Shown here: one piece after another, positions 16,399 through 40,360 of the stretch
Layout: every line of letters starts with the position of its first letter
Position numbering within the stretch: the first letter of the stretch is position 1
Assembly (NCBI GenBank): GCA_046582735.1
Contig: JAYGDV010000040.1
Location: forward strand, 1 to 40,360
Origin: Planctomycetota bacterium
GTDB lineage: Bacteria; Planctomycetota; UBA8108
DNA: 40,360 nucleotides
Reading direction: 5' to 3'
The notes under the pieces: model-generated
Databases searched by the model: none
What the model was told of the DNA's origin: nothing
Seen by the model: the letters and a program-made list of their open reading frames with translations, nothing else
Position numbers and translations under genes: made by a program

Positions 16399-16998
16399 AT
16401 GCAAACTACCTGCCTTACCGATCCCACCCTGGTTCTGAACAAAAACTGGCTACCGATACAGGTTTGTCCAGTACGCCGCGCTTTCACACTGCTGTTCAAG
16501 GGCCTTGCCCGTGTTGTCGAACCGCAGGACTACTCTCTCTATGATTTTGACAGATGGTCGGACCTGGCCATCCCCCGTGGCGAGCCGTTCGTCCAGGGTG
16601 TCCGCAGTCGCATTCGAATTCCCGAGGTCATCGTTCTGCAGGGATGCGACCGTTTTAACCGGCCGCGGGTGGCCTTCACCCGCCGCAATCTCTTTCGCCG
16701 TGATCGTAATTGTTGCCAGTATTGCGGCAAGAAATGTTCCACCGAGGACCTCTCGATTGACCATGTTATTCCCAGGTGCGCAGGTGGAGAGGGCAGCTGG
16801 ACCAATTGCGTGGTCGCCTGTCTTGCCTGCAATGCCCGCAAAGGAGGGCGGCTGGTAGGCGAGGCGGGGATGCACCTGCTGCGCGAACCGGTTGAGCCAC
16901 CCGCCCAGTCGGCCTTTACGCTTCACGTCAATCGTCGCAAAGCAAGCTGGGAACATTTTGTCAGCGAGGCCTACTGGAACACCGAGTTGAAGCCCTGA
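16399..16998 (+). CDS. Stand-alone HNH endonuclease (about 200 aa)
   Basis: CCQYCGKKCSTEDLSIDHVIPRCAGGEGSWTNCVVACLACNARKG is an HNH/zinc-ribbon core, with a conserved-looking N-terminal domain. GAGGA lies 4 nt upstream of the ATG. Confidence 0.85.
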   Translation: MQTTCLTDPTLVLNKNWLPIQVCPVRRAFTLLFKGLARVVEPQDYSLYDFDRWSDLAIPRGEPFVQGVRSRIRIPEVIVLQGCDRFNRPRVAFTRRNLFRRDRNCCQYCGKKCSTEDLSIDHVIPRCAGGEGSWTNCVVACLACNARKGGRLVGEAGMHLLREPVEPPAQSAFTLHVNRRKASWEHFVSEAYWNTELKP

Positions 16999-22300: not shown

Positions 22301-23220
22301 ATATCAATGTGGCGCTCTGGACAGAGGAAGACGATGTAGTCTCCTCCGGGCTTGACGGAAGGACCCTTGATTACTCAGCCTGGCGCGACCGGAATGAAGA
22401 TGCAGAGCCGCCTGCTGATTTCTTTGTGGCAGGCATGGGCTACAAGGTTGAAGTCCGTCTTGGCGGTGGTCTTACAGGAGGGCGTCTCAGTGCACTGGCA
22501 AGAACCCTGACCAACTGGCTCCCTGTCTATCTGAAGGAATCTTCCCTGGCGCTCCTTTCGGTCGATCATGGAAGCTCTCTCCACAAACGTCGCGATGAAA
22601 AAATATGGGACCAGCCGGCCGGCAGCTTTTTTCGCTCCGGGGCAGTGCGGTTTGCAGTCTCGATGGATGGACGGGATTTAAAGTGGAAGCTCAACAACAA
22701 GACGATCAACTACAAGACCAGCCTGGCCGTTGGCCGCCTGGGAGACAGGATTCCGCACGCTGGTTCGTTCAGTCTCTTTACCAATAACTCGACGGTCTTT
22801 TTCCAGTCCCTGGAAATTGTTGGCCGGATTTCGAAGGAATGGGCTTCCGGTCTTGCGAAAAGTATTGCCGAGAGAGAGCTCAAAAAACTGGATCCTTCTC
22901 CGAGCAGCGGGTCAGGCGGGAGTGGGCAGGACGATAAAAAGCCGGGTTCGGGGAAACCGGCAGAAAAGAAGTCGGCGGACGCGGGTAAAGTTGGCGACCC
23001 CTCGTCCTCTCCTGCGGGGAGCGCTGAATTAAAAGGGCTGATGGGACAGTTTGACAAGAACGGCAATGGGACCCTGGATGCCGACGAACGAAAAGCCCTC
23101 CAGGATTTCCTGCGAGGGCGTTCTCAGGAAGATTCGGCCCCCAGCCCCAAGGGCGACCAACCGGATGGTTCGGGGAAGACTTCGCCTCCCGCAGCGGCAA
23201 AGAAAACTACTTCCGGATAA
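19306..23220 (+). CDS. FHA domain + Hanks-type Ser/Thr protein kinase + single TM + large extracytoplasmic helical and lectin-like region + C-terminal EF-hand loop
   Basis: FHA: FAIGRDETCAVCIDDLMASRVHCVV...STNGIRVN. Kinase: LGRGAMGTVYLA...VALKIL...HRDIKPANLL...DLGIA...GSPRYMAPE. TM: LVVGAVLGIVALVFGLVLVTKL. C-terminal beta domain ending ...NNSTVFFQSLEIVG. EF-hand loop DKNGNGTLDADE at 23053..23088. Confidence 0.85.
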   Translation: MAKLTVESGSERGKQFKLPDSGTFAIGRDETCAVCIDDLMASRVHCVVRCDSGKWIIEDHKSTNGIRVNDVPVDRHTLIPGDTIEIGDTLLALSATDEDPLIGATLAGYDIEKRLGRGAMGTVYLARQLSLDRPVALKILAPRFSKDEDFIQRFLEEARAAGRLNHPNVVQVYDAGHEGDYHYMSMEYLEGGSLEELLEKEERLDVIRAVEAARDAAQALQFAQQNHIVHRDIKPANLLLTLDGTIKVGDLGIAADLRQYSGGVEATGKTSPAGSPRYMAPEQARGESLDQRADIYGLGATLYKMISGVAPFDGSSVKEILKAKMDNDPQPLRKLIPEVPGGLSSVVQKMLARNPDSRYENAEQVYTALDPTQYRKSISSKGKARVARSTPASQGSRAPAARRGPRRSPQKSQSNLVVGAVLGIVALVFGLVLVTKLMDSGNGDRKVSRPDRSEETTSRPVEQPQQSGIERDPSKIAINERDRISGEYSKGQIDAATALQRLDNLLGNNPRIAPSSEKLRKKLFAAVEIEKKEKERKLQIEAKSAVAAIDLLIEKKELKSATDSIAGFLQKYSDFGPDMVSAQRQKLSGIIRSVVAESAKRVAQLVKSADFEKALAEIAALKGKVPGSEAARIQSLEAEVNLVKNRMANSLIFVQEKRSGIYKFLADLDFSEAEKQLADIIGKLGGIEKVNQEARDLLGLIGNHVSSSKLAWEELQVIFSAAAKSKAAVKLKFLLATADDKELRYKVLGLEGHAVRVQESGSKAPPPVAYRVLGLDTGIAVNLLGKQGRQGLGEEKILQGVGLLLLLRDGPGRARELLLDEKIPAAGRKANEELLASYGNSWREARLYALQKLENSLGTAKSSVPMDMWNLIATDAGVLITAWRKRPDYAKVRDTLHELFLRTRIAALQGASVEGVFNAKTVKEGRDGLTTLQYDFSTVDQLKDFLPARRGNSSIEWVEKRKLLKLKGEVRFLAANPFESRLSVTGLVPTGGYNSQAPNINVALWTEEDDVVSSGLDGRTLDYSAWRDRNEDAEPPADFFVAGMGYKVEVRLGGGLTGGRLSALARTLTNWLPVYLKESSLALLSVDHGSSLHKRRDEKIWDQPAGSFFRSGAVRFAVSMDGRDLKWKLNNKTINYKTSLAVGRLGDRIPHAGSFSLFTNNSTVFFQSLEIVGRISKEWASGLAKSIAERELKKLDPSPSSGSGGSGQDDKKPGSGKPAEKKSADAGKVGDPSSSPAGSAELKGLMGQFDKNGNGTLDADERKALQDFLRGRSQEDSAPSPKGDQPDGSGKTSPPAAAKKTTSG

Positions 23221-23244
23221 GGGTTTCCCCGAGGGGCCAATGGG

Positions 23245-26200
23245 ATGGTTGTAAATCAAAAGGGGCAGAGTTGCAGGCCCGGCCAGGCTACGGGTTCAGG
23301 GAGTTTTCTTTCGGTTCTGGCCTGGGCGGCGGTTTTTTCCCTGGTCACCGGATCGGCCTGGAGCGAGGTGTTATCGCTTCGTTGCGGAATAACAACGACC
23401 AGGGGAGTCCCGGCCGAGGGGCGCAGTCTTCCTGACCTGCCTTTCAACGTTGAGAGGGGTTATGGGTTTATTGGCGGGAAGGCTGGAGTACTTGAGACAG
23501 CTGCGGTTCGGGGGCTGCGTGCCGCGCCGCGGGTTTCCTGGCGGGCCGGGGAATCAAAATACGTCTTCAAGCTCAAACGGGGCGAATACCTCGTAACCCT
23601 GGACTTTATAGAAACCGAGGTCGCTGCTGCGGGGCTCCGGATTTTTGATGTAGAGGCAGAGGGCAAGGTAAGTATAGAGGGATTGGATATCTTTGATGAG
23701 GCTGGAGATTTCAGCCTTCTCCAGAGGTCCTTTCGGGTAGGGGTTTTTGATGGGTGGCTCGATCTGCAGCTTGTTGCTGTTACAGGGGACCGGGGGCCGC
23801 GTGTATCTGGAATCAGGATTGAGCCGTTTTCAGCGGCGGACTCTGCCGGACTCTCCCTGGGCAAGCCGGTTCTCAGCGGCCGTTCGGGTCTTTTTCGAAA
23901 CACCCTGGCCTGGAAGCCCCCGGTGGGGGAGGGTTGGGGTACGGCTCCTCTTGCAGGGTTCAATCTCTACAGAAGCAAGGTCGCTGGGGGGCCCTTTGCG
24001 CCTGTCAATGACCGCCTTCTGCGGGTTCCTTACCTGGTGGACCGGGACCTCGTTCCCGGGACCACCTATTACTACCGGGTACAGAGCCAGGATATAGCGG
24101 GCACCAGGAGCTCCGCTTCCGCAGCGGTTGCCCTGGAGGCGCTCTCGCATTCAAAGACAGATCCGAAGATTTACGATATCCGGATAAGCGATGCTGACTT
24201 CCGGCGCATGGCGACCCGGGAGGGATCGGCCGAGAGGGTCCCCGCGGAGGTTCTTTATATGAAAGGCCGCTTTCCGGCGGAGATTGGTTTTGATGTGCGG
24301 CCCGGGAGTTGGTTGCGACAGAAGAACCTGGTTGTCGATATGAGCAGGGACAGCTTCAGGGCTTTCCGCAAGAGAGATTTTCTCCTGCTCAGCGCAGAAG
24401 AGCCTGACTTTACCCGGATGCGGAGAACCCTCACGTCCATGGCAGCCGGGTCGGTCGGGCTCGCCGCCGGCCTTACTGAGCCGGTCATTGTCCTGGTCAA
24501 CGGCAGGTTTTTCGGCTTGCGCTATGATGTAGAAAGGATTGACAGCAAGTTCAGGAAGCGCACGCTGCTTGACAGGACCGGTCCCTTGAGCCGCCTTACC
24601 GGTGATGACCACTGGCGGGCGGACTGGAGTATGCGCGCCCGGAGGGTGGGCAAGAGTGGAGACCTGCTGTCAGTCAATGATCTTGTACGGCAGCTCAACC
24701 GCCTTCACCCGGGAGAGATTGAAAGTTTTTTCAGGAGCCGTTTTTACCTGGGGAAGCTGATCGACCGCCTGGCATTTTCAGCGGTAAGAGGCGAACTGGA
24801 CCCTGACCCCGAAGATCTTTTTTTACTGAAGGATTCGCGCAACGGCAAGTGGGAGATGTTCAGGCAGGATTACAGCGGTGGAGCCTGGGGGATCAGGGAT
24901 CTCGATACAGCGATTCGGGATCTCACACCGGGAGAACTGGAGCGGGCGCTGTTTCCCCTGTGTCAGCGCAGCGGGACGCCCCAGAGAAAGGCCTGGATGG
25001 TTCTCTTCACCCGTTTTTTCAATACTCCCGCTTTGCGTGAGCTCTATCTCCAGAGGGTGGAGTCAATGATCCGGGAGGAGCTCTCTGCAGAGCGGTTTGA
25101 TGCAATGGTGGACAGGGCGGCAGCCACCGCCGCTTCAGCCCTCGAACACAGCAGGCTGCTCTCCCCCGGTGTCCGGGTAGCTTCCCCCGGGGTCCTGGGG
25201 GATGAGATTAAGGCAGCTCACCGAAGGCGGACAACGGCCCTGAAGGTGCTCATTGATGCAGTCAGAGCGCGCCCCCGGGAACCCGTTATGATCTCTTCTT
25301 ATTTTCTCAACCCGGCCAGTGGTTCACTCTGGGTCGAGTTGCGCAATCGTTCAGATGCAGTGGTTAAGCTCGCGGATTTAAGGTTCTCCGGTGGCTTCAG
25401 TGATAACCCCCGCCTGGTTTCCAGGGTGGGAGACCTGGCCCCGGGAACGGCTTTCAGGCTGGAGCTGCCCCCGGGACCGCAAACCAGGAGCCTGGCAAGC
25501 GGCGGATCACTGGTGTTGTGGCGTCGCGTACCGCAGGCTGGGATCATCGTTTCCGATTTTGTTTTCTTTGGCCACCAAGGCAGGGGCGTCGTTCAGAAAA
25601 AAGTGCCCGCCGGTGAGGGCGACTGGGTTTTTGTTTCTGAAGGCGAAAAAAAGAGCGAATGCCCAAGTCCGTTTTATTCCCATGAAGTAGTCCGTCGCAA
25701 CAACGGTGACCTGCTGCTCTCCTTCAGGTTGAATAGTTTACCTGGAGGTTCCCGGGGGCAGAGGCCGGTGGTAGAGCTGATGTACCGGCCGGTGGGTGAT
25801 AAGGCCTATGAGGGTGTTCCCATGACCTGGGATGAGGAGCGGCATCGGTACCTGGTTACTCTTCAAAAGGACGAGAATCGACCGCGTACAGAATATTACT
25901 ACCGGGCGAGGGGAACGAACGGTCTTGAACGGGCTTACCCCCTGGGGGCTCCTGCGTTGACACTGGTGCTGCCTGTTCTTCCGAAGTTTTTCATCAACGA
26001 GGTCTGTCCCCGGCCCGGTGGAGCTCCCGGGGCACCGGGTGAGTTCATCGAGATTATCAACGAGTCCGACCGGGCTCTCTCTCTGAAAGGTCTCTATCTC
26101 TCCGACGACCGGGGAAGGAAAGCGAAGTGGTGTATCACCGATGACATCGTCGTCAAGCCGGGAGGCTACGAGGTTTTTTACGGGGATGGACTGAACCAGG

Positions 26201-26457
26201 GTCGGCATACGAGTTTCAAGTTGTCCAATTCAGGGGAGTTCGTAGGCCTCTATACGTCTCCTCACGAGGGGAGTCTCCTGGTCCACGGGTGCGCTTTCAG
26301 AGGCGTTCCCCTTGGGAACTCCTGGGGAAGAAAGCAGGATGGAAGCAGGTCATTCAGAGCCTGGAAGGATCCTACTCCCGGTAAGAGAAACCTGCCGAAA
26401 ATACCCGAGGGCTACCTCGAGAAGTTGCGCGCCAGGCAGAAGGCAAAGGACGATTGA
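23245..26457 (+). CDS. Secreted multidomain CotH-family (atypical kinase-like) protein: malectin-like + FN3 + CotH + two lamin-tail (LTD) domains
   Basis: GAGGGG lies 8 nt upstream. Signal peptide: FLSVLAWAAVFSLVTGSAWS. Malectin-like: YLVTLDFIETE...RIFDVEAEGK...LDIFDEAG...VSGIRIEP. FN3-like: LAWKPP...YYYRVQSQD. CotH-like: VIVLVNGRFFGLRYDVERIDSKF...NGKWEMFRQDYSGGAWG. LTD: FINEVCPRP...EFIEIINESDRALSLKGLYLSDD...FKLSNSGEFVGLY. Confidence 0.8.
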   Translation: MVVNQKGQSCRPGQATGSGSFLSVLAWAAVFSLVTGSAWSEVLSLRCGITTTRGVPAEGRSLPDLPFNVERGYGFIGGKAGVLETAAVRGLRAAPRVSWRAGESKYVFKLKRGEYLVTLDFIETEVAAAGLRIFDVEAEGKVSIEGLDIFDEAGDFSLLQRSFRVGVFDGWLDLQLVAVTGDRGPRVSGIRIEPFSAADSAGLSLGKPVLSGRSGLFRNTLAWKPPVGEGWGTAPLAGFNLYRSKVAGGPFAPVNDRLLRVPYLVDRDLVPGTTYYYRVQSQDIAGTRSSASAAVALEALSHSKTDPKIYDIRISDADFRRMATREGSAERVPAEVLYMKGRFPAEIGFDVRPGSWLRQKNLVVDMSRDSFRAFRKRDFLLLSAEEPDFTRMRRTLTSMAAGSVGLAAGLTEPVIVLVNGRFFGLRYDVERIDSKFRKRTLLDRTGPLSRLTGDDHWRADWSMRARRVGKSGDLLSVNDLVRQLNRLHPGEIESFFRSRFYLGKLIDRLAFSAVRGELDPDPEDLFLLKDSRNGKWEMFRQDYSGGAWGIRDLDTAIRDLTPGELERALFPLCQRSGTPQRKAWMVLFTRFFNTPALRELYLQRVESMIREELSAERFDAMVDRAAATAASALEHSRLLSPGVRVASPGVLGDEIKAAHRRRTTALKVLIDAVRARPREPVMISSYFLNPASGSLWVELRNRSDAVVKLADLRFSGGFSDNPRLVSRVGDLAPGTAFRLELPPGPQTRSLASGGSLVLWRRVPQAGIIVSDFVFFGHQGRGVVQKKVPAGEGDWVFVSEGEKKSECPSPFYSHEVVRRNNGDLLLSFRLNSLPGGSRGQRPVVELMYRPVGDKAYEGVPMTWDEERHRYLVTLQKDENRPRTEYYYRARGTNGLERAYPLGAPALTLVLPVLPKFFINEVCPRPGGAPGAPGEFIEIINESDRALSLKGLYLSDDRGRKAKWCITDDIVVKPGGYEVFYGDGLNQGRHTSFKLSNSGEFVGLYTSPHEGSLLVHGCAFRGVPLGNSWGRKQDGSRSFRAWKDPTPGKRNLPKIPEGYLEKLRARQKAKDD

Positions 26458-30382: not shown

Positions 30383-30411
30383 TTTACAAGCCCCCTGAGA
30401 ACGATTAGAAT
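30383..30411 (+). promoter_or_regulatory. Strong sigma70-like promoter candidate for the amidohydrolase-module array
   Basis: TTTACA (30383..30388), an exact 17-nt spacer, then TAGAAT (30406..30411). It lies in the largest and AT-richest intergenic region of the window (30201..30593). Confidence 0.45.
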
Positions 30412-30593
30412 GATCCGTTAACGAGTATCGAGGAGTCTTTTATTGGTGGGCTCACCAGGGCCTTCACCTTTATTTGCCTGAATAAGCCGTGACCTATTTC
30501 TTCAGCGCTTTTAGCAGCGTGGACTTATTTCTACGTACACGATTGCGCAAAAACACAATACTGCAGGGAGAGTGTCCCATTGAGGGGAGAGGC

Positions 30594-33500
30594 TTGCAGC
30601 CTTTCTCCCTTCGCCGGATTTTATTCCTCGCTGCCTGCTGCCTGCTGCCGGCTGTTTTGGCCGCGGCGGATCTCGCCATCACCTCGGCGACGGTACATGT
30701 GGGCAATGGAGAGGTGATCCAGGATGGTACCGTGTTGGTTTCGGGGGGGCAGATCACTGCAGTCGGCGGCAAAGGTGACGTGGAAATACCTCCAGGTGTG
30801 CAGCGGATCGATGCGAAAGGGCTTCACCTCATCCCGGGGATGATCGACCTGCGCAGCCTTGAACTGGTACCGGAATCCACCGCGCCCTTCGGTGTTAATT
30901 CCCGAATAGCGGTTATCGATGGACTCGATTTCTTTGAAAGGTGGGGGCCTGTCCGTGATGAAGGCGTGACGACTGTTGCCGTCAGCGGTGCGGGTGGAAG
31001 CACCCAGAGCAGTCTTGGCGCTATTCTCAAGCTTCGAAGAAGCGTGGCCGGGCTGGGATCGCTGGAGAGTATGCTGCTGAAGCGGGAGTCCCATATCGTT
31101 CTTTCGCTCGGTATTGCCGGTACCACCTCGACCAGCGCCCACCGTCTCGAACAGTATTACGCACTCCGCCGGCAGATGGTTGCGGCACTTAAATACACTG
31201 AGGCCTGGGAGAAATACTGGAAGGAAGTAGAGAAGTACAACAAGGCGGCCGAGAAATTTAACTCCGGTTTGAAGGCTCCCGGGGCTGCAGGGGAAAAGAA
31301 AAAAGAAGAGAACAAGGACGCCGGAGCGCCCGCGGCGGAGGAAAAGAAGGACCCGAAAGATCCGGCAAAGAAACCAGCCCCCGCAAAGACTGCTCCCAAG
31401 CCGCCCAAGGTCACCAAGCCGCCCAATCCGCCCAAGGTCCCCAAGCCGCCCAAGGTGCCCAAGCGGCCCAAGGTCGATCTGGCCATCGAGGCAATGAGCC
31501 GGGCTTTGAAGGGTGAACTCACCGTGTTCATAGAAGCTCATCGCGCCGACGATGTCCGCTATGCCTTGCGTCTTCATGAGGAGTTCAAGTTTGATTTTAC
31601 TCTCCTGGGAGCCGGACGTGCCGGTCCTGTTGTTAAAGAGCTTGCCTCCTCCGGAATCACTGTTGCGCTGGGGCCTGTTCTGAACACCTCTCATGATCTG
31701 CGCCAGGACACCAGGACGGAACTGCTGGCCGGTGTTTATGGAAAAGCCGGTATTCCCCTGGTGATCAGCTCCGGTGCGGCATCAACTGAGGGCAGCCGCT
31801 ACCTGCGCATGCAGGCCTGTGCGGCAGTACGTGGAGGTCTTGACCCTGAAAAGGCTCTCGAGGCACTTACCCTGCAGCCGGCGAAGAGGCTGGGGTTGGA
31901 AAAGGAAACGGGCTCCATCGAGAAGGGAAAAGCCGCTGACTTGGTTCTGCTGAATGGTCCACCACTGGATATCCGAAGCAGGGTTGTCTCGGTCTTTGTC
32001 GAGGGAGTAGCCGGCGCGGATGCGCCGGTGGCAGCCGGGCAGGTTATCCGCGGCCCGGAGGCAGGATTGAGCTTTGCCCCGGTCGAGGAAAAAGCCGCCG
32101 CGAAGCCCTCTGCCGGCTGCGTTCTCAGGAATGCGCTGGTGATGCGGATTGCTCCCGCTGGAATGGAGGTGATCAGCAAGGCTACGGTTGTCATTCGGAA
32201 CGGAAAAATCGACAAGGTAACTACCGGCCCCGTCAAGGTGGAGGCCGGGTTTGCCGTTTACGATCTCGCCGGACGCTGCCTGCTGCCAGGGTTTATCGAC
32301 GCCCACTCGCATCTCACCCTGAAGGGAGATGTGGACGACCTCGCAGTCGCCTTGAATGATGACCTGCGTGTCATGGACAGCTTTGACCCCTGGGATCGTG
32401 AGATCGGAGTCTTTCTCAGCCGCGGTGTGACCACGGTTGCGCTGAGCCCGGGCAGAAACAACGTGGTCGGCGGCGAGATCAGCATGATCAAGCTCCTGCC
32501 AGGCGGCGTTCCACTCCGCGTTCTGAAGAGAAAAGCGGCTGCAAAGGTATCCCTGGTTCCTAACCTGACCCTGCCGCGATACCCGACCTCGCTCAGTGGT
32601 GCTGCCGATGCATTTGCGCAATGGCTGAAAAACCGCTACGCGGTTGAATCAAAGGGGCTTCGCGTTCCTGTGGTTGCTTATTTCGAAAATATTACGCAGG
32701 TTGAGAGGTCCTTAGCCCTGGCGCGAACCCACAAGGTGGCGATCACTTTTCTCGAAGGAGTCGGGACCGATGGGCGGACATTCGGCAGGCTCCCCGGCGG
32801 CTCCCGGGTGATTCTTGGCCCCTATTCCATAGAGGAGCCTGAGCGGGTTCTTCGAGCTCCGGCGATTCTCGAAGAGAACGGAGTTCCTTTTTCATGGGCG
32901 ACAAGCGGCACCTTGATTGACCCCCTGAGCTCAGCCACGCTGGCCATGGTGTACGGGTTGAGCGAGGCCGGAGCGCTGCGCTCCCTGACTACGCATCCGG
33001 CAGCCCTCTACGGAGTCGATTCCCGGATTGGGAGACTCGAGAAAGGCGCCGATGCAGACCTCGTGGTCTGGGACGGCAACCCGCTGAGCCTGACCGCAGC
33101 GGTTAACATGGTATTTATCGATGGGAAGATCGTCTTCAAGGATGGTGCGAAGGTCGAATCACCGGTCAAGGTGGCCCGGACAGAAGCGGTCCGAGGTGGG
33201 ACGCCCTTACCGGCCATGGTCACAGCAGGCGCCGAGCCCGTTGTGCTGGAGCCGGCTGTTGAGTCAACCATTCTTATCCGGGCCAGGAAGGTCTACACGG
33301 TTTCAGGCGAACCTCTCGAACCCGGGCAGGTCCTGATCCGCTCCGGCAGAATTGTCCAGCTGGGCAAGAGGATAGATATTGATAAGACCACCCCCGGACT
33401 GATGGTCATTGATGTTCCCGGTTCACTTTGTCCCGGCCTGATCGACGGAGGATCCGGGATGGGGATTGACGGGCGTCGTGCCGATGAGTTCAGAGAGATG

Positions 33501-34511
33501 ACACCCGTCCTGCCAGTCCTTCTCGGGGCTGATCTCGACGCTATTGAACGCCGCAGAGCCCTGCAGAGCGGCGTGACGGCGGCCGCGATCACCCCTGGTG
33601 ACCGGAATGTAATCGGTGGTCTCGCAGCTGTAATCAAGACGCATGGAGACAATCTCTCCGAGGCAGTTCTGAACGGAGCATCTTCTCTCTCCATGTGCCT
33701 GACTCAAATGGCGAGCTCCGGCAACAGGACCCTGCGGTCCGGCCGTCCGAGCACCTACCTGTACCGGATTCCCACAACCAGGATGGGAACCGTCTTCCTC
33801 GCTCGCAGAGCGCTGCTTGAATCTGTCCCCGGTGGCTGGGATAGCAGCCACGCAGTGGGGGATCTGAAAGATATGCTGACGACTTCCGAGCGGCGGGTCG
33901 TTCGCGAGGTCCTCGCCGGCAAGAGAACCCTCAGGATCAGGGCCCAGGCCCGCTACGAGATCTTGACGGCGCTGAGGATCGCGGGCGAATTCGGCCTCCA
34001 GGTCCAGATCGAGGGCGGCAGGGAGGCGATTCACCTGGTCAGCCTCCTGAAGGAAAAGAAGGCCTCCGTGTTCCTGGCTGCAAATGAAAGATGGTCCGGT
34101 CGCGAGCTGGAGGCGAACCTGAACTTGAGTGCCCGGCTTCCTGCCGAGCTCCACAAGGCAGGAGTTCCTTTCGCTTTTTATTCGGACTCCGCCTCTGCTG
34201 TTGCGGGATTGCGCGACAGGGTCACCTGGTGTGTTCGCCGGGGCCTTCCAGAATCGGCGGCACTCGAGGCACTCACCCTGGGGGCGGCGCGTATGCTCGG
34301 AGTGAGCAATCGGATCGGCAGTATTGAACCCGGGAAAGACGCCGATCTTGTTGCCTTCGGAGGTTCTCCCTTCGATACCAGGTCGGCAGTGCTCTGGGTC
34401 ATGGTTGACGGCAAGCTTGTTGCGGACCCGTTCCAGGGAGAGAAGCCGGTGGAGCGTCCCCGTGCAAAGATCAATAAACGAAGATCACTGGTCCCCCAGG
34501 GGGACTTCTGA
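30594..34511 (+). CDS. Exported three-module amidohydrolase-fold fusion protein (modules A1-A3); Pro/Lys-rich repeat inserted in module 1
   Basis: The longest ORF starts at GTG 30489. An in-frame TTG at 30594, preceded by GAGGGGAGAGG, gives the signal peptide (M)QPFSLRRILFLAACCLLPAVLAAAD. The unit [beta-sandwich ...G.I..VG...IDA.G..L.PG.ID...] ... [G.T....PG..N..GG....K] ... [G(S/R)(I/L)E.GK.ADLV...G.P] occurs three times. Only module 2 has the HxH motif (FIDAHSH). Confidence 0.8.
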   Translation: MQPFSLRRILFLAACCLLPAVLAAADLAITSATVHVGNGEVIQDGTVLVSGGQITAVGGKGDVEIPPGVQRIDAKGLHLIPGMIDLRSLELVPESTAPFGVNSRIAVIDGLDFFERWGPVRDEGVTTVAVSGAGGSTQSSLGAILKLRRSVAGLGSLESMLLKRESHIVLSLGIAGTTSTSAHRLEQYYALRRQMVAALKYTEAWEKYWKEVEKYNKAAEKFNSGLKAPGAAGEKKKEENKDAGAPAAEEKKDPKDPAKKPAPAKTAPKPPKVTKPPNPPKVPKPPKVPKRPKVDLAIEAMSRALKGELTVFIEAHRADDVRYALRLHEEFKFDFTLLGAGRAGPVVKELASSGITVALGPVLNTSHDLRQDTRTELLAGVYGKAGIPLVISSGAASTEGSRYLRMQACAAVRGGLDPEKALEALTLQPAKRLGLEKETGSIEKGKAADLVLLNGPPLDIRSRVVSVFVEGVAGADAPVAAGQVIRGPEAGLSFAPVEEKAAAKPSAGCVLRNALVMRIAPAGMEVISKATVVIRNGKIDKVTTGPVKVEAGFAVYDLAGRCLLPGFIDAHSHLTLKGDVDDLAVALNDDLRVMDSFDPWDREIGVFLSRGVTTVALSPGRNNVVGGEISMIKLLPGGVPLRVLKRKAAAKVSLVPNLTLPRYPTSLSGAADAFAQWLKNRYAVESKGLRVPVVAYFENITQVERSLALARTHKVAITFLEGVGTDGRTFGRLPGGSRVILGPYSIEEPERVLRAPAILEENGVPFSWATSGTLIDPLSSATLAMVYGLSEAGALRSLTTHPAALYGVDSRIGRLEKGADADLVVWDGNPLSLTAAVNMVFIDGKIVFKDGAKVESPVKVARTEAVRGGTPLPAMVTAGAEPVVLEPAVESTILIRARKVYTVSGEPLEPGQVLIRSGRIVQLGKRIDIDKTTPGLMVIDVPGSLCPGLIDGGSGMGIDGRRADEFREMTPVLPVLLGADLDAIERRRALQSGVTAAAITPGDRNVIGGLAAVIKTHGDNLSEAVLNGASSLSMCLTQMASSGNRTLRSGRPSTYLYRIPTTRMGTVFLARRALLESVPGGWDSSHAVGDLKDMLTTSERRVVREVLAGKRTLRIRAQARYEILTALRIAGEFGLQVQIEGGREAIHLVSLLKEKKASVFLAANERWSGRELEANLNLSARLPAELHKAGVPFAFYSDSASAVAGLRDRVTWCVRRGLPESAALEALTLGAARMLGVSNRIGSIEPGKDADLVAFGGSPFDTRSAVLWVMVDGKLVADPFQGEKPVERPRAKINKRRSLVPQGDF
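31395..31474 (+). repeat. In-frame 9-nt periodic Pro-Lys repeat (PKPPKV-type)
   Basis: Reads APKPPKVTKPPNPPKVPKPPKVPKRPKV. The DNA consists of CCGCCCAAG / GTSCCCAAG units. Confidence 0.85.
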
Positions 34512-34532
34512 AACAGGACTACAGGATAAGAT

Positions 34533-35864
34533 ATGAATTCCATTACCCCGATCTTGATTCTAACCGCCAGCCTTGCCGTGGCATCCGACGAGGTTGTCGT
34601 GCTTAAGGTCGGCCGGGCGATCACCGCCGCCGGCAAGGATATTGAAAAAGCCACCATCGTCCTGGAGGGAGGGCGCATCAAGTCCATCGGGACCGATGCC
34701 GAGACTCCCCGTACAGCCCGGGTTGTAGAAATGCCCCGGGCGGTGGCGATGCCGGGAATAGTCGATGTTCACAGCGTCAACGGGCTGAGGGTGTCCAACG
34801 AGCGCCTGGCGAATGTGCCCTATGTAACGGTGCTCGACGGAATAGACCCGTCATCTCCGGGACTGGAGAATGCGCGCCGCCATGGGGTTACGACTGTTCA
34901 TTGTATCCCCGGAAATGTAACCCGGTTTGGTGGGCAGGGAGCAGTGATCCGCACCAGCGGCAGGACCGTTGATGAGCTTGTCGTGAAATCTCCTTCGGCC
35001 ATGAAAATGTCTCTCCAGCCTGCTGCCGGTGAGAACCGGATGGGGAACATCGCCGCCCTCAGGAAGAGCTTTTATGATTTTTACACCCGGATGAAGGCTC
35101 TGCAGGACCCCGGTGGTAAAGCTCCGCTGGTGAAGAAAAAGAAGCTTTCGCTCACCGACCTGGTGAAGTCCCGTCCGAACTGGGATGAGATCGACTGGAA
35201 GAAGATTCCCGATGACAAGGTCTCGGAGCGGGAGAAGCCCATGCGTGACCTGGTACAGGGCAAGCTCAGGGCCTTTATCAACTGTCCGACTGCTTCGGAT
35301 GTATTCAAGGCGTTCGAGCTGATCGACACCCACCACCTGGACGCGACGCTTGTTCTCGGCCCGGATGCCTGGAAGCTCGGTAAGGTCCTGGCCGCGCGCA
35401 AGAACCTGGGACCGGTGGTTCTCAATCCCCTGCTCGAGGTCTGGGAGCGTGATCCCGGCACCGGCGGGGAAAAGCGCCAGCTCACTCCTGTGCTGCTGCA
35501 CAAGGCCGGCATCTCCTTCGCCTTACAGGTAGTGACCGACTCCAGTTTCAATTCGGGCCCTTCTTTCGGGCGCAGCGGACCCTATCACCACTGGTACCAG
35601 GCCGCCCGGCTGGTTCAATACGGTCTGCCCCGGGCTGAGGCAATCGAGACGATTACGATCACACCCGCGAAGATCCTCGGCCTTGACCATCGGATTGGTT
35701 CGCTGGAGGCCGGCAAGGATGCGAACATCGCCATCTTCTCAGGTGATCCGCTTGATGCCCGGAGCTGGGTTGAGAGAGTCTTCATCGAGGGCCGCGAGGT
35801 TTATAACCGCAGCAAGGACCGTGACCTCGAGCTGTTGTTGAAGGATCCGGAGAGGTCGTTCTGA
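34533..35864 (+). CDS. Exported single-module amidohydrolase-fold protein (module B), HxH half-degenerate
   Basis: Starts 21 nt after the previous stop. Signal peptide: MNSITPILILTASLAVAS. Reads PGIVDVHSVNG (second His replaced by Val), GVTTVHCIPGNVTRFGGQGAVIRT, and GSLEAGKDANIAIFSGDPLD. Confidence 0.8.
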   Translation: MNSITPILILTASLAVASDEVVVLKVGRAITAAGKDIEKATIVLEGGRIKSIGTDAETPRTARVVEMPRAVAMPGIVDVHSVNGLRVSNERLANVPYVTVLDGIDPSSPGLENARRHGVTTVHCIPGNVTRFGGQGAVIRTSGRTVDELVVKSPSAMKMSLQPAAGENRMGNIAALRKSFYDFYTRMKALQDPGGKAPLVKKKKLSLTDLVKSRPNWDEIDWKKIPDDKVSEREKPMRDLVQGKLRAFINCPTASDVFKAFELIDTHHLDATLVLGPDAWKLGKVLAARKNLGPVVLNPLLEVWERDPGTGGEKRQLTPVLLHKAGISFALQVVTDSSFNSGPSFGRSGPYHHWYQAARLVQYGLPRAEAIETITITPAKILGLDHRIGSLEAGKDANIAIFSGDPLDARSWVERVFIEGREVYNRSKDRDLELLLKDPERSF

Positions 35865-35883
35865 GGCGTTTGCCCAGGCCGTC

Positions 35884-38418
35884 ATGAACAGAAGAACAGA
35901 CATGCACCTTCCACGAAAAATAACTGCACGGAGTTCAGCCGCGTGCTCCCGGATGGCCGGGTGGATTGCCGTTGCGTTAGCGGCACTGCTGCCGGCCTGG
36001 CTCGAGGGCAGTGAAGAGACCGCCAGCCGCAGCTTTGCCATGCGCGGAGCCACCATCCACACGATCTCAGGCGATATCCAGGAGAATACGAACCTGGTCG
36101 TCAAGGATGGGAAGATCGTCGCCCTGGGTCAGAAGGTAGTGATTCCCAAGGGCCTGAAGGTTTACGACCTGAAGGGATATGTGGTTATTCCCGGTCTTCT
36201 CGACGCAGAGACCACGCTGGCCAGTGGCAATCGAGACACCCTCGAGAGCGTGTCACCCCATGTCCGGGCCCTCGATGGCTGGGATTATTTCCGCGACAAT
36301 AGGGATCTTCTCAAGGGTGGGGTTACCGCTGTTTATCTCTCCCCGGGAATTGCAGCTTCCAGGACGCGGACGCGGCTTGTTTCGGGCCAGGGTGCTGTCG
36401 TCAAGACTGCCGCCTCCAATGGGGATCCGCTCAGAAGGATCGTTTCTTCTTCGAGCGGGCTGCAGGTAACGCTTGGTGATCTGTCAAAAATCCAGCCCTC
36501 GGTTTATGTTCCCCCGGTGGGCGCTTCACCTGACAACCCCTTCGAGGTGCTCCTGCCGCCTCTTCCCCAGTCCCGCTCGGGAGAGTTCCTGGCCCTGCGC
36601 CAGGTGATCTCCAGGGCCCGGCTTTACAGTGATTCGCTTGCGAAGCACATCAAGGGAAGAGCTGCTGCTCCGGGCTTCGACAGGATCTCCTCTGCCTTCC
36701 ATCCAGTGGTGGCCGGCAGCGACCACCTCCGTGTACGTGCCAACAAGGCCCGGGATATCTATCACATTCTCGAGCTTGCCCGCGAGGCTGGCATCAAGAT
36801 CGTTATCGAGGGTGGGGCTGAGGCTGAACGCCTGACTCCGTGGCTCGTCAAGATGAAGGTCCCGGTGATCTTTCCGGGGGCTTTCCAGCCAGGGAGGCTG
36901 CCCGGCGGAGACCTGCAGAGCCCTGCCATCGAGGGGCGACTGCGTGAGGAATCGATTCTCCGCATGCATCGGGCAGGGGTCAGGGTGATCCTCAACAGCC
37001 CCAGCGATGGAGAGGTGAAGGATCTTCTCCTGCAGGCGGCTGCAGCGGTTCGTCTCGGGATGAAGCCAGCAGAAGCATTGCGGACCATCTCCCTCAATCC
37101 TGCAGAGGTCCTGGGGGTCGCTGACCGTATCGGAAGCATAGCTCCGGGGCGGGATGCGGACCTGGTGGTTCTGGGTGGAGATCCACTTGGCTCTGACAAC
37201 CAGGTCCAGGCAGTCTTTATAGATGGAGAGCTCGTTTTCAATCCTGCTCCTGCGGTGACGTCTGATTGCACGGTTATCCGCGCCGGGCGCCTGGTAACAG
37301 GGAGTGGAACCGAGTATTCCCAGGGTGTCGTTATCGTCAGGAAAGGGAAGATCGAATATGCCGGGCCGGGGCTTGCCCTCGTCTCCGGTGTAAAGGGTGC
37401 GAAGGTAATAGACGCCTCCAGCCAGACGGTGATTCCCGGGTTGATTGATGCGGGTGGAATGGCTGGAACACGGGCAGAGGCGCTGGTTCCCGGGTTTGGA
37501 GCCGGCCAGGGCAGCTCCGGTGCGGGAAAAACGGCTGATTTCCGTCTTGCCGATTCCATCGATCCGCGCGACCCCTCGCTGATGGAACTCGTTCGGGCCG
37601 GGATCACCACGGTATTGATTACCCCGCCGAGCGCCGGCCAGGTCTCGGCCTTGAAGCTCGCCGCCGCTGATCCTGCCAAGGCGCTTATCAGGCCGTATGC
37701 GGCGCAGTATTTCACCAAGTCATCCAGCAAGACGCTCAAGAGTGCCAAGGCCTACCATGACAGCTGGATCCAGTTTGATAAAAAGAAAGAAGCCGCTGCG
37801 GCGGCAGGCAAGGAGTTCAAGGACAAGCCTCCCACGGTGCAGGATGCTTACGAGCCCTACCGGGCCCTGTTCAAGGGAGAGGTCCCGGCCCTGGTCGAGG
37901 TCCCCAATGCTGCCTCCGTGGCAGCCGTGGTGGCTCTCTACAAGGACCAGTACGGGATTCGTGTTCTCTGCAGTGGGTTCTCAGGCCTGCGACAGGATGA
38001 GAACCTCGCAGGGCTGGCCGGTCTCCTTCTTTCGAAGACCGGCGGCATCATCCTGCAGAACCCGCTGATCGTGAAGCAGGATAACCAGCAGGTAAACTGG
38101 CCGCGGAAGTTGAGCGGGCTTGGAGTCATGCTCTCGCTGCGGTCCCGTGTAGCTGGAGGCGCCAGGTTGTTGCCCCTGCAGGTTTCCTACGCGGTTCGAG
38201 AAGGGTGGAACTCCCGCCTTGCTCTGCGGTCGATGACCTCGATTCCGGCTGAACAATTCGGTATTTCCGACCGGGTCGGCACCATCGAGAAGGGCAAGGA
38301 TGCAGACCTGGTTATTCTTTCGGGAGAACCTTTCTCCGTTGCAGCCAGCGTCATGGCCGTCATGGTCGATGGGAAGCTGGTGCACACAGTCGAGCAATTT
38401 GATGGAGAGGTTGAATAG
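35884..38418 (+). CDS. Exported two-module amidohydrolase-fold fusion protein (modules C1, C2), both lacking HxH
   Basis: Starts 19 nt after the previous stop, with a hydrophobic N-terminus (MAGWIAVALAALLPAWLEG). C1 reads PGLLDAETT ... GSIAPGRDADLVVLGGDPL. C2 reads PGLIDAGGM ... GTIEKGKDADLVILSGEPF. The exact start is uncertain (ATG 35884, 35902 or 35953). Confidence 0.8.
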   Translation: MNRRTDMHLPRKITARSSAACSRMAGWIAVALAALLPAWLEGSEETASRSFAMRGATIHTISGDIQENTNLVVKDGKIVALGQKVVIPKGLKVYDLKGYVVIPGLLDAETTLASGNRDTLESVSPHVRALDGWDYFRDNRDLLKGGVTAVYLSPGIAASRTRTRLVSGQGAVVKTAASNGDPLRRIVSSSSGLQVTLGDLSKIQPSVYVPPVGASPDNPFEVLLPPLPQSRSGEFLALRQVISRARLYSDSLAKHIKGRAAAPGFDRISSAFHPVVAGSDHLRVRANKARDIYHILELAREAGIKIVIEGGAEAERLTPWLVKMKVPVIFPGAFQPGRLPGGDLQSPAIEGRLREESILRMHRAGVRVILNSPSDGEVKDLLLQAAAAVRLGMKPAEALRTISLNPAEVLGVADRIGSIAPGRDADLVVLGGDPLGSDNQVQAVFIDGELVFNPAPAVTSDCTVIRAGRLVTGSGTEYSQGVVIVRKGKIEYAGPGLALVSGVKGAKVIDASSQTVIPGLIDAGGMAGTRAEALVPGFGAGQGSSGAGKTADFRLADSIDPRDPSLMELVRAGITTVLITPPSAGQVSALKLAAADPAKALIRPYAAQYFTKSSSKTLKSAKAYHDSWIQFDKKKEAAAAAGKEFKDKPPTVQDAYEPYRALFKGEVPALVEVPNAASVAAVVALYKDQYGIRVLCSGFSGLRQDENLAGLAGLLLSKTGGIILQNPLIVKQDNQQVNWPRKLSGLGVMLSLRSRVAGGARLLPLQVSYAVREGWNSRLALRSMTSIPAEQFGISDRVGTIEKGKDADLVILSGEPFSVAASVMAVMVDGKLVHTVEQFDGEVE

Positions 38419-38420
38419 GG

Positions 38421-39671
38421 ATGAATCGAACCTGCAAGACCTGTATTTTCCTGTTCCTGTTGAGCCTCTACGCTTTGCCGGTTCGTTGCGGCGATCCTGC
38501 AGTTGGGCGGAAATGGGCCATCCGCGGAGGAAAGGTCGTTACCATTACAAAGGGTAACCTCGAGGGGGCGGTCGTGCTTGTATCCGGCAGCCGGATCGAG
38601 AAGATCATCCCCCGCCCCGCTGCAGACTGGAAACCCCCGGCTGGTTACAAGCTCATCGATGCAGGTGAGCGTTGGGTTGTTCCGGGCTTCATCGAGCTGC
38701 ACTCCCATATCGCTGGCGGTGATCTCAACGACATGGTCTACCCGGTGAATCCCGGTTTCAGGACATTGGACAACGTGATTCCCCGCAATGCCCTTCTCAA
38801 GAGGGCGCAGGCCGGCGGCGTGACGACGGCCCTGTTCATTCCCGGAAGCGGCACCAATATGGGTGGCTTCGGAACCCTGATTAAAACGGCAGGCAAAGAT
38901 CTCGATGAAATGCTCATCCGCTTTCCCGGGGCGCTCAAGATTGCCCAAGGTGGAAATCCCGAGCGCAGGGGCGGCGATATTGGCTACTCCAGGATTGGTA
39001 TGAACTGGCTGATCCGCAATGCCCTGAAGGAAGGCCAGGCCTACACCCGGGCATGGGATGCATGGGAGGCGGACAAGACGAAGAAGAAGCCGGTGAAGAA
39101 CCCCCGCCTGGAAATGTTCCGGGGGCTGTTCCACAAGGAATATCCCGTCGTGGTTCATACCCAGGGCTATCACCTGATCCAGTCAACGATCCGTATCCTG
39201 CACGATGAGATGAAACTCTGGGTGGTCATTGACCACGGAACCTTTGACGGTTTCGAGCTGGCACCCGAGGTCGCCAGCCGGGGGATCCAGGTAATGAATG
39301 GCCCGCGTGAGTTTCGCTGGGATACCCGCCTGGGCGGCTTCCGGGGATTGGCCTATGAATGGTATCGCGGTGGAATCAAGACGATCGGCGTCAACACCGA
39401 CTCCCCGGTGGTTCCTGCCGAGGAGCTGATCTACCAGGCATCGATGGCGGTGAGGCTGGGGCTGAAAGAAGACGTTGCGCTTGCCGGTATTACTCTTCAT
39501 GCCGCCCGCGCCCTTGGAATGGAGAAGAGACTGGGCAGCCTGGAGGCCGGCAAGGATGCGGATATCGTCATCTGGACAGGTGATCCGCTCGATCCGCGCC
39601 AGTCTGTGGTGCTGACGATGGTTAACGGAAAGATAGCTTACGACACCAGCAAGGAGCCCCAGAGGTTCTGA
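38421..39671 (+). CDS. Exported amidohydrolase (module D), the only module with an apparently complete metal-ligand set
   Basis: Starts 2 nt after the previous stop, with GGAGAGG upstream. Signal peptide: MNRTCKTCIFLFLLSLYALPVRC. Ligand motifs: PGFIELHSH (HxH), GALKIAQG (Lys), VVVHTQG (His), VIDHGTF (His), GVNTDSP (Asp). The C-terminus reads GSLEAGKDADIVIWTGDPLD. Confidence 0.85.
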   Translation: MNRTCKTCIFLFLLSLYALPVRCGDPAVGRKWAIRGGKVVTITKGNLEGAVVLVSGSRIEKIIPRPAADWKPPAGYKLIDAGERWVVPGFIELHSHIAGGDLNDMVYPVNPGFRTLDNVIPRNALLKRAQAGGVTTALFIPGSGTNMGGFGTLIKTAGKDLDEMLIRFPGALKIAQGGNPERRGGDIGYSRIGMNWLIRNALKEGQAYTRAWDAWEADKTKKKPVKNPRLEMFRGLFHKEYPVVVHTQGYHLIQSTIRILHDEMKLWVVIDHGTFDGFELAPEVASRGIQVMNGPREFRWDTRLGGFRGLAYEWYRGGIKTIGVNTDSPVVPAEELIYQASMAVRLGLKEDVALAGITLHAARALGMEKRLGSLEAGKDADIVIWTGDPLDPRQSVVLTMVNGKIAYDTSKEPQRF

Positions 39672-39689
39672 GCCTGCTGGAGATTTAGA

Positions 39690-40360
39690 ATGAAAACACG
39701 CACTGAACATACCACCGGAAAAGACCGCCGCCGGCTGCGGCTTCGCCTGCTGGTGCTGGCATTGCTGCTGGCACTGGGCCCGGCTCTTGCCGCGGACGAG
39801 GACCTGGTTGCTTACAAGGCTGCCCGGATCGTCAGCAAGGCAGGCCAGAGCGTTTCCCCCGGTTTCCTTCTTGTTCGCAGCGGGAAGGTCGAAAAAGTCC
39901 TGGGCGCAGACGCGAAGCTTCCTGACGGAGCCAGGGTGGTTGATCTCAAGGAAGCGGTCATATTGCCCGGCCTGGTCAATCCGCTCAGTGCCATCAGCCA
40001 GGCCAATTACAGGTCAGGTCCCGGCAGGGCCTCGCAATCCAACTCTTCCCCCAGCGATGGCAGGAAGCTGCTCGGGTCCTCGGGTGTGAACCTGAAGCAC
40101 GAGATCTACCGCCGCCTGGGAAGGACCGGGTATACGACATTCGCAGTCGTTCCGAATGACACCAGGGGGTTGATCGCCGGGCAGGCCTCCGTGATCCGCC
40201 CGGCCCTTGGAAACGAGAAAGAGGCCAAGGAGCTTGTGCTGGCGGAGTCGGCCTACCTCATGCTGGGCTTTGCCTCCGGAAAGGTCTGGTATGACGCCGG
40301 TATCAAGTACCTGAAAAAAGCCGTCGATGGCATCCTGAAGCAGAAGGCCGACAAGAAGAA
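39690..40360 (+). CDS. Exported amidohydrolase-fold protein (module E), 3' end outside the window; HxH absent
   Basis: This ORF is not in the supplied track because it has no stop in the window. ATG 39690 lies 18 nt after the previous stop. My manual translation is open to base 40360: MKTRTEHTTGKDRRRLRLRLLVLALLLALGPALAADEDLVAYKAARIVSKAGQSVSPGFLLVRSGKVEKVLGADAKLPDGARVVDLKEAVILPGLVNPLSAIS...GYTTFAVVPNDTRGLIAGQASVIRP... It has the same module grammar as the four upstream genes. Confidence 0.75.
   Translation, partial: MKTRTEHTTGKDRRRLRLRLLVLALLLALGPALAADEDLVAYKAARIVSKAGQSVSPGFLLVRSGKVEKVLGADAKLPDGARVVDLKEAVILPGLVNPLSAISQANYRSGPGRASQSNSSPSDGRKLLGSSGVNLKHEIYRRLGRTGYTTFAVVPNDTRGLIAGQASVIRPALGNEKEAKELVLAESAYLMLGFASGKVWYDAGIKYLKKAVDGILKQKADKK

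Follow-up and report, generated by a model that had tools for sequence, protein, structure and literature searches.

Why should a bacterium maintain, one after another on the same strand, a series of enzyme-like genes most of which lack the residues required for catalysis? The question is raised by a stretch of planctomycete DNA (Planctomycetota bacterium, GTDB lineage UBA8108; assembly GCA_046582735.1, contig JAYGDV010000040.1, 40,360 nucleotides (nt), hereafter the window), whose end, at 30489–40360 on the plus strand, is occupied by five closely packed genes, A to E, encoding eight homologous modules of the amidohydrolase fold. An earlier note on this DNA had proposed that one module, D, is a competent hydrolase and that the other seven are paralogues that have lost their metal ligands. 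Our analysis leads to a similar view: D is, with high probability, the sole canonical catalytic module of the array, the remainder being pseudoenzymes under selection. The count of one live module among eight is correct for the window, while the array itself comprises nine modules, the last of which, F, lies beyond the window end. The genes and modules in the window are as follows (ORF, open reading frame; aa, amino acids).

30489–34511, plus strand: gene A, 1340 aa as a mechanical ORF, with modules A1, A2 and A3 fused in one chain
30639–32039, plus strand: module A1, degenerate
31272–31484, plus strand: Lys/Pro-rich low-complexity insert within A1, with a 9/27-nt tandem repeat at 31395–31472
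32112–33170, plus strand: module A2, half-degenerate
33240–34508, plus strand: module A3, degenerate
34533–35864, plus strand: gene B, 443 aa, a single degenerate module with its own signal-peptide-like leader
35884–38418, plus strand: gene C, 844 aa, the fused degenerate modules C1 (35884–37260) and C2 (37261–38415)
38421–39671, plus strand: gene D, 416 aa, with a complete binuclear-metal ligand set
39690 (ATG)–40360, plus strand: gene E, degenerate, the first 223 codons of which lie in the window before it runs off the end

All-against-all blastp comparison aligned pairs of modules at 22–31% identity over approximately 330–430 residues (E 1e-14 to 1e-36), indicating that the eight PGxID sites of the array belong to copies of one domain and are not chance motifs. 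A, B, C and D score 45–147 bits against the Pfam models Amidohydro_1 (PF01979) and Amidohydro_3 (PF07969), for which the gathering cut-offs are 25 and 29.7. The fragment of E present in the window gives no Pfam match and is recognized through its blastp matches to the other modules; full-length E proteins of relatives give faint Pfam matches. The best NCBIfam model, NF051886 (Xaa-Pro dipeptidase, Caulobacter type), matches only partially, at 59–149 bits for A–D and 18 bits for the E fragment against a cut-off of 500, and the HutI imidazolonepropionase model TIGR01224 yields 35–109 bits against a cut-off of 298. The JGI label “imidazolonepropionase-like” carried by relatives was accordingly set aside as generic. 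Scores for all curated NCBIfam equivalogs lie well under the respective cut-offs, which leaves no basis for naming any module as a specific enzyme. The closest solved relative of every module tested is instead PDB 3OOQ, an uncharacterised amidohydrolase of Thermotoga maritima MSB8 deposited as a structural-genomics entry. D aligns with 3OOQ from end to end (E 6.7e-45, the next PDB entry reaching 1.8e-13) and B over its full length (E 4e-40, the next entry reaching 4e-9).

In the amidohydrolase superfamily, an HxH motif, a Lys, two His and an Asp hold two metal ions and the attacking hydroxide. The positions of these ligands were assigned through two MAFFT alignments, hhalign comparison of orthogroup profiles with the D group, and a phmmer-type pairwise alignment of B with 3OOQ, with the following outcome.

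38700–38702, 38706–38708 and 38937–38939, plus strand: H94, H96 and K173 of D, all aligned to the HSH and K of 3OOQ
39156–39158, 39234–39236 and 39399–39401, plus strand: H246, H272 and D327 of D, aligned to the H, H and D of 3OOQ
A1: R and L at the HxH pair; V at the Lys position; E at strand 5; L or G, depending on the alignment, at strand 6; A or G at strand 8
A2: H606 and H608 at the HxH pair; K686 at the Lys position; Y731 at strand 5; E756 at strand 6; S806 at strand 8
A3: G and G at the HxH pair; S at the Lys position; R at strand 5; G at strand 6; S at strand 8, with an Asp adjacent (YSDSAS)
B: H80 and V at the HxH pair; Lys kept; N at strand 5; L at strand 6; D or T, variable among orthologues, at strand 8
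C1: E109 and T111 at the HxH pair; Q194 at the Lys position; R285 at strand 5; G310 at strand 6; P373 at strand 8
C2: G524 and M526 at the HxH pair; Y609 at the Lys position; E672 at strand 5; S697 at strand 6; R755 at strand 8
E: L and A (L-S-A) at the HxH pair; M at the Lys position; strands 5, 6 and 8 beyond the window end

The downstream ligands of D lie in the motifs ALKIAQG, VVVHTQ, VIDHGT and NTDSP. In A1, A2, A3, B, C1, C2, E and F the set of six is incomplete, each module having zero to three of them; the most ligands are found in A2, with H, H and K, and in B, with H, K and possibly D. Two independent routes, hhalign of the orthogroups against the D group and the pairwise alignment of B with 3OOQ, give no second complete set, in agreement with the earlier note, which had singled out D for its downstream Lys, two His and Asp and had correctly read A2 as retaining HxH and Lys with Tyr/Phe and Glu where the later His residues are expected. 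The eight triplets it had quoted for the HxH position all translate as given, in frame with the ORFs. For A1, the absence of ligands stands and the register does not: the quoted L-R-S (30849–30857) directly follows the Asp of PGMID, whereas in the other seven modules the quoted triplet begins one residue later, and the aligned triplet is R-S-L (30852–30860). As R-S-L is equally devoid of ligands, the conclusion is unaffected. In A2, A3, C1 and C2, the aligned positions fall at or just past the C-terminal ends of strands in the secondary structure of AlphaFold models, which is where the amidohydrolase fold places its ligands.

The same genes follow the same transketolase gene in three relatives, L084 (D 96% identical) and L001 and L002 (D 88% identical). 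In these relatives E is 465–469 aa long and is succeeded by F, of 434–437 aa, the ninth module, also degenerate. Tautonia sociabilis (Isosphaeraceae) contains the same gene series, with a D that is 52% identical, and relatives of D at 50% identity or more number in the hundreds, all named ones being Planctomycetota. A genome scan followed by a motif-based hidden Markov model parse yielded 19 planctomycete loci, from Gemmataceae, Pirellulaceae, Pirellula, Planctomycetaceae and unclassified metagenome-assembled genomes, together with a truncated Phycisphaerales contig. The order A1-A2-A3-B-C1-C2-D-E-F is identical in all parsed loci, the truncated contig showing C2-D-E-F, so that a fixed module order spans five planctomycete families or orders. 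The modules form nine clean orthogroups: for 141 of 144, the best match in another genome belongs to the same group. By sequence comparison, the array is ancient. The window's lineage has a single D, whereas others carry two to four in tandem, so that arrays range from 9 to 12 modules. Amplification of D was seen in L008, L011–L015, L017 and L018 (for example, L012, 8710–13667), where every copy has the full ligand set and each of the eight degenerate groups is represented once; the live subunit is what varies within the array.

Conservation among orthologues separates D from the remaining groups. All six ligands occur in each of the 36 D copies, including tandem duplicates, and in no other orthogroup; a further set of 21 D orthologues shows no variation at these positions. 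In the other eight orthogroups the ligand set is not conserved, and most of its positions differ from one orthologue to another. Among the residues that are kept, the first His of B is found in 12 of 13 orthologues and its Lys in 11 of 13, and seven of eight A1 orthologues have Glu at the strand-5 position. The HxH and Lys of A2 are retained within the window's clade, in only two or three orthologues among nine loci compared, and are lost in most other lineages; in two relatives, the strand-5 His is kept as well. These residues of A2 are a relic of the window's lineage and its relatives. The residue pattern of D suggests a catalytically competent binuclear amidohydrolase of the 3OOQ type.

Although the metal sites are lost, the predicted structures of the dead modules are not. 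The AlphaFold2 model of C1-C2 has a mean predicted local distance difference test score (pLDDT) of 85.7 and a predicted template-modelling score (pTM) of 0.81; that of A2-A3 has a mean pLDDT of 82.5 and a pTM of 0.79, with a disordered linker between the modules. Both models find 3OOQ as their best PDB match, with a target-normalised TM-score of 0.86, any other entry scoring 0.64 or less. A (beta/alpha)8 barrel with a small beta-sandwich is seen in these models, and the full-length alignments of D and B to 3OOQ indicate the same architecture. The dead modules tested are therefore predicted to fold still, and to do so in a 3OOQ-like manner. A hairpin of the form PG...GGxGxxIK/R follows the second barrel strand (in D, residues 142–155, 38844–38885). 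It is shared by 3OOQ and all nine module types, and its Lys or Arg is invariant also where the metal site has been lost; it is a candidate structural or interface element.

Nei-Gojobori ratios of nonsynonymous to synonymous substitution rates (dN/dS) were computed between the window and L084 (dS 0.07–0.29) and between the window and L001. Against L084, dN/dS lies at 0.055–0.18 for every module, D having 0.078; against L001, it lies at 0.08–0.22. Values are 0.15–0.17 for A1 and 0.055–0.084 for B. The fastest-evolving stretch of the operon is the Lys/Pro-rich insert of A1 at 31272–31484, with a dN/dS of 0.26; E of relatives bears a similar Lys/Ala/Pro-rich insert at the same position in the fold. 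The degenerate modules are intact in L084 and in 17 further planctomycete loci (L001, L003–L015, L017–L019). In L002 (2064–3583), the A1 frame is interrupted, its N- and C-terminal motifs lying in different frames, and gene A is called at 1002 aa. L001 is a near-identical relative of L002, and the interruption may reflect either a genuine frameshift or faulty assembly of the low-complexity insert. Median identity to the group reference (the window module, or that of L001 for E and F) is 26–37% for the dead groups and 45% for D. The fraction of columns conserved at 90% or more is 15% in D, 13% in B, 12% in A3 and F, 8% in C1 and C2, and 3–4% in A1, A2 and E. Overall, dN/dS values of 0.05–0.22 indicate that the dead modules are not decaying pseudogenes and are held by purifying selection. 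Having lost the catalytic residues while keeping the fold under purifying selection, they are pseudoenzymes. The proposal of structurally conserved, ligand-less paralogues kept by selection thus agrees with the confident predicted folds, the dN/dS values and the clean orthogroups.

What, then, could the dead modules be doing beside D? The organization of the genes suggests that the products function or assemble together. The gaps between A and B, B and C, C and D, and D and E are 21, 19, 2 and 18 nt, and in relatives of the array stop and start codons overlap at gene junctions. Fusions vary with lineage: A1-A2-A3 form one chain in the window, A1-A2 are fused in Tautonia and Pirellula, and the three are separate genes in L008, L012 and L018; C1 and C2 form a single chain in every locus examined. 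The N-terminus of each polypeptide in the window resembles a Sec signal peptide, with a short charged segment followed by hydrophobic and then small residues. Where A1, A2 and A3 are separate genes, each possesses its own leader, while fused modules are joined by a short hydrophilic linker only, that between C1 and C2 comprising 15–19 hydrophilic residues and no leader. The leaders were judged by eye and with a hydropathy measure; their presence on every polypeptide suggests that the products of the array are most likely periplasmic. Single-gene relatives in Bacillota, Actinomycetota, Chloroflexota and archaea have no leader. Outside the phylum, the full ligand pattern was found in 65 of 79 modules, nearly all of them members of this single-gene family.

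Taken together, the fixed gene order, the tight or overlapping gene junctions with their apparent translational coupling, the lineage-dependent fusions, the pTM of the two-module chains, the trios of related modules found elsewhere (below) and the homo-oligomeric state of relatives point to co-function or co-assembly. On balance, we favour the view that operon A–F encodes a periplasmic hetero-oligomer in which D is the sole catalytic subunit and the dead paralogues are non-catalytic partners. In this model, the nine modules would assemble into one hetero-oligomer that replaces the homo-oligomer of the single-gene cytoplasmic relatives. The metal centre would reside in D alone, and the eight dead paralogues would serve for architecture, for access or binding of the substrate, or for regulation. 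The high pTM of C1-C2 and A2-A3 suggests defined packing of module against module. A scaffold role for the degenerate modules, which the earlier note had raised, is likewise something that we infer.

Smaller assemblies of similar design were seen in other phyla. An exported catalytic module flanked by degenerate paralogues in neighbouring genes is present in Rhodothermales (L061) and Acidobacteriota (L063 and L074), as well as in L087, and an exported pair of one catalytic and one degenerate module is found in Gemmatimonadaceae (L083). Stand-alone exported polypeptides of 1260–1406 aa (P0266, P0267, P0279 and P0286) have the arrangement degenerate-catalytic-degenerate, and P0264, P0265, P0273 and P0280 are fused catalytic-degenerate pairs. 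The leaderless, cytoplasmic single-gene relatives have no degenerate partners. Three amidohydrolase proteins of approximately 1000–1080 aa from Opitutales, Flavobacteriales and Xanthomonadales (P0323, P0341 and P0359) match about half of an A2-A3 query and may be further multi-module relatives in other phyla. When the modules of the trios were compared with the array orthogroups, the catalytic ones matched D and the degenerate ones scored flat against all groups. The layout of gene A is that of a fused trio, with the half-dead A2 in the middle, “catalytic” position, which hints that the array grew by duplication of a trio, although similarity scores could not confirm it.

These conclusions have to be weighed against other accounts of the degenerate modules. 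Were the ligands mis-assigned, several modules counted as dead might be complete metal enzymes with shifted ligands. Alignment is less certain in the middle third of the modules, where the sequences diverge and long insertions occur; a His lies two residues past the strand-5 position in A1, and an Asp is found near strand 8 in each of A3, B and C1. We nevertheless regard mis-assignment as very improbable, because MAFFT, hhalign of orthogroup profiles and phmmer against 3OOQ concur, the strands of the AlphaFold2 models end at or just ahead of the aligned positions, the residues there vary freely among orthologues while those of D are invariant, and three of the six ligands is the most that any degenerate module retains. 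The structure-guided alignment proposed in the earlier note as a check, carried out here as profile-profile and structure-informed comparisons and as the alignment of B with 3OOQ, did not relocate the ligands. That the degenerate modules are functionless duplicates in decay, or pseudogenes in the making, is less credible still, to the point of being hardly tenable: the dead modules have admittedly diverged faster than D (26–37% median identity as opposed to 45%) and the A1 frame is interrupted in L002, but ORFs are intact in all other loci, the predicted folds are confident, and both the dN/dS range and the conservation of the orthogroups over deep planctomycete lineages contradict decay. Pseudogene-like drift, the other sign that the note had suggested looking for, was therefore absent apart from A1 of L002.

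A more serious alternative, though in our judgement an unlikely one, is that the products are co-regulated and work separately, without a stable complex, D acting as a stand-alone periplasmic hydrolase and the degenerate modules serving as binding proteins for substrate capture or sensing, or as enzymes with a new, non-canonical site in the same pathway. Such an arrangement would account for the 12–13% of columns that A3, B and F keep at 90% identity or more, many of them polar residues unrelated to the metal site, and for the copy number of D varying independently of the remaining array. It is harder to reconcile with the recurrent and variable fusion of modules, including catalytic with degenerate ones in other lineages, with the strict co-occurrence and fixed order of the nine groups, with the high pTM of the two-module chains and with the homo-oligomeric state of the relatives. 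Several observations also weigh directly against the hetero-oligomer. The pTM of a fused chain bears on the interface indirectly; arrays of 9–12 modules, with one to four copies of D, are at odds with one constant stoichiometry, for example that of a decamer; the conserved polar residues peculiar to A3, B and F might underlie an overlooked activity or ligand binding of their own; export is read from N-terminal sequences by eye and with a hydropathy measure; and the neighbours of single-gene relatives offered no hint of a substrate. The periplasmic hetero-oligomer with D as its catalytic subunit nonetheless remains the reading that we prefer.

The reaction catalyzed by D can be approached through its relatives. 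The nearest characterised enzymes are the Lys/Arg carboxypeptidase Cc2672, prolidases and ochratoxin hydrolases; by analogy with these, which cleave the amide bond adjoining a C-terminal amino acid, D may perhaps act on such a bond in a peptide or an N-acyl-amino acid. Genes adjoining D-like single-gene relatives in four genomes (Wukongibacter, Bacillus, Arthrobacter and Anaerobacterium) are mutually unrelated and carry no pathway signal, encoding an efflux pump, RtcB, BacA, a GNAT protein, a chemoreceptor, a TsaD-family protein, a glycosyltransferase and a Cys/Met pyridoxal phosphate (PLP) enzyme.

Some features of the window concern the boundaries and expression of the array.

30383–30411, plus strand: promoter-like site upstream of gene A (TTTACA, a 17-nt spacer and TAGAAT), a consensus match

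This site is the sole plus-strand match ahead of or within the array. Because the scan for promoters and terminators performed at chance, with the number of promoter-like sites equal to the shuffle expectation, it is weak evidence. The mechanical ORF of gene A starts at a GTG (30489). The alternative start TTG 30594 is preceded by GGAGAGG and gives a typical signal-peptide leader, QPFSLRRILFLAACCLLPAVLAAA; in L084 the called orthologue has 1292 aa, 48 fewer than the window ORF. The true start of gene A is probably TTG 30594. Upstream, on the opposite strand, a transketolase gene adjoins the array, and in the window's lineage the flanks consist of this gene upstream and an FG-GAP protein gene downstream. 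In Tautonia the array lies between a helicase gene upstream and genes for BNR and DUF5117 proteins downstream. Since the flanks are not conserved, the operon looks self-contained.

Farther upstream, at 19306–26457, the window contains two very large genes, one for a 1304-aa protein with FHA and Ser/Thr kinase domains and one for a 1070-aa protein with CotH, lamin-tail and malectin domains. A free-standing ORF for an HNH endonuclease of 199 aa, at 16399–16998, is flanked by a short-chain dehydrogenase gene and by a gene whose product has an N-terminal domain resembling apolipoprotein N-acyltransferase.

Eight dead copies and one live copy of an enzyme fold in a single operon, preserved across a bacterial phylum, are of interest whatever their precise partnership. 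If they form one particle, they would provide a clear bacterial case of a complex elaborated by duplication and loss of catalysis, as well as a defined target for learning the role of 3OOQ-type amidohydrolases. Planctomycetota, and possibly other diderm phyla with the trio form, would then possess a conserved, unstudied periplasmic machine. Annotation is affected too: “amidohydrolase family protein” is the current label of all nine modules, and for eight of them it most likely names an activity that the protein lacks. No published account of the array or of the trios was found in the literature on 3OOQ, planctomycete amidohydrolases, amidohydrolase pseudoenzymes and cog1228, a search that left many subscription journals uncovered, and it likewise turned up no substrate reported for any member of the 3OOQ subfamily.

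How does the array compare with systems already described? 3OOQ resembles D in sharing the HSH, K, H, H and D residues. It differs from the array in coming from a bacterium outside the phylum and in belonging with single-gene relatives that, where examined, are leaderless. It is also a homo-oligomer, with 10 chains in the entry, and has been treated as dihedral in a docking benchmark, whereas the array consists of nine exported paralogues, eight of which lack a metal site. The carboxypeptidases and prolidases of the cog1228 type (Cc2672 / 3MTW, Sgx9260b / 3FEQ and 3N2C, and the ochratoxin hydrolases 8IHQ and 4C60) belong to the same branch of the superfamily and appear as second-tier PDB matches, but their sequence similarity to the array is limited to N- and C-terminal segments. 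A carboxylated Lys forms part of the binuclear site of these enzymes, and octamers are common among them, which fits the many chains found in each of their PDB entries; they are not known to be accompanied by dead paralogues. Metal-dependent bile salt hydrolases, which were considered as relatives because preprints on them cite cog1228, are a different and larger family.

Amidohydrolase-fold proteins without metal ligands are themselves not unprecedented. PyrC' of Pseudomonas aspartate transcarbamoylase (ATCase) has this fold, has lost its metal ligands and acts as a structural partner of an active enzyme, and the eukaryotic CRMP/DRP proteins, which function in cytosolic signalling and the cytoskeleton, have the fold without the ligands and a non-catalytic role. 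The earlier note had likened the array to both, and the likeness is sound as a concept; by descent it fails, as no module belongs to either family. No specific relationship to PyrC' was detected by sequence, dihydroorotase models matching weakly, and CRMP/DRP match only at E ~1e-3 over about 40 C-terminal residues. The settings differ as well: PyrC' partners an unrelated enzyme, ATCase, in the cytoplasm, while the eight dead modules of the array are exported beside an active paralogue of the same fold.

The closest parallels in design may lie in the beta ring of the eukaryotic 20S proteasome and the RNase PH ring of the exosome, in which a homo-oligomer has been replaced by fixed paralogues, most of them catalytically dead. 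It is tempting, although we hold this view only tentatively and think it somewhat less than an even prospect, to suppose that Planctomycetota turned a 3OOQ-type homo-oligomer, dihedral and of about ten chains, into a fixed periplasmic particle of nine paralogous modules with one live kind, D, present in up to four tandem copies. Such a particle would be a bacterial counterpart of these mostly dead rings, and the trios of Acidobacteriota, Rhodothermales and other diderms would be its smaller versions. The rings and the array have unrelated folds and occur in unrelated organisms, so that the likeness is one of analogy, with assembly of the array products into one particle a proposal. Inactive paralogues that partner active enzymes are described mostly from eukaryotes, and usually one at a time. 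The principle of an inactive paralogue working with an active enzyme is therefore known, and what is new in the planctomycete array is its scale, its export, its fixation across a phylum and the protein family in which it has arisen.

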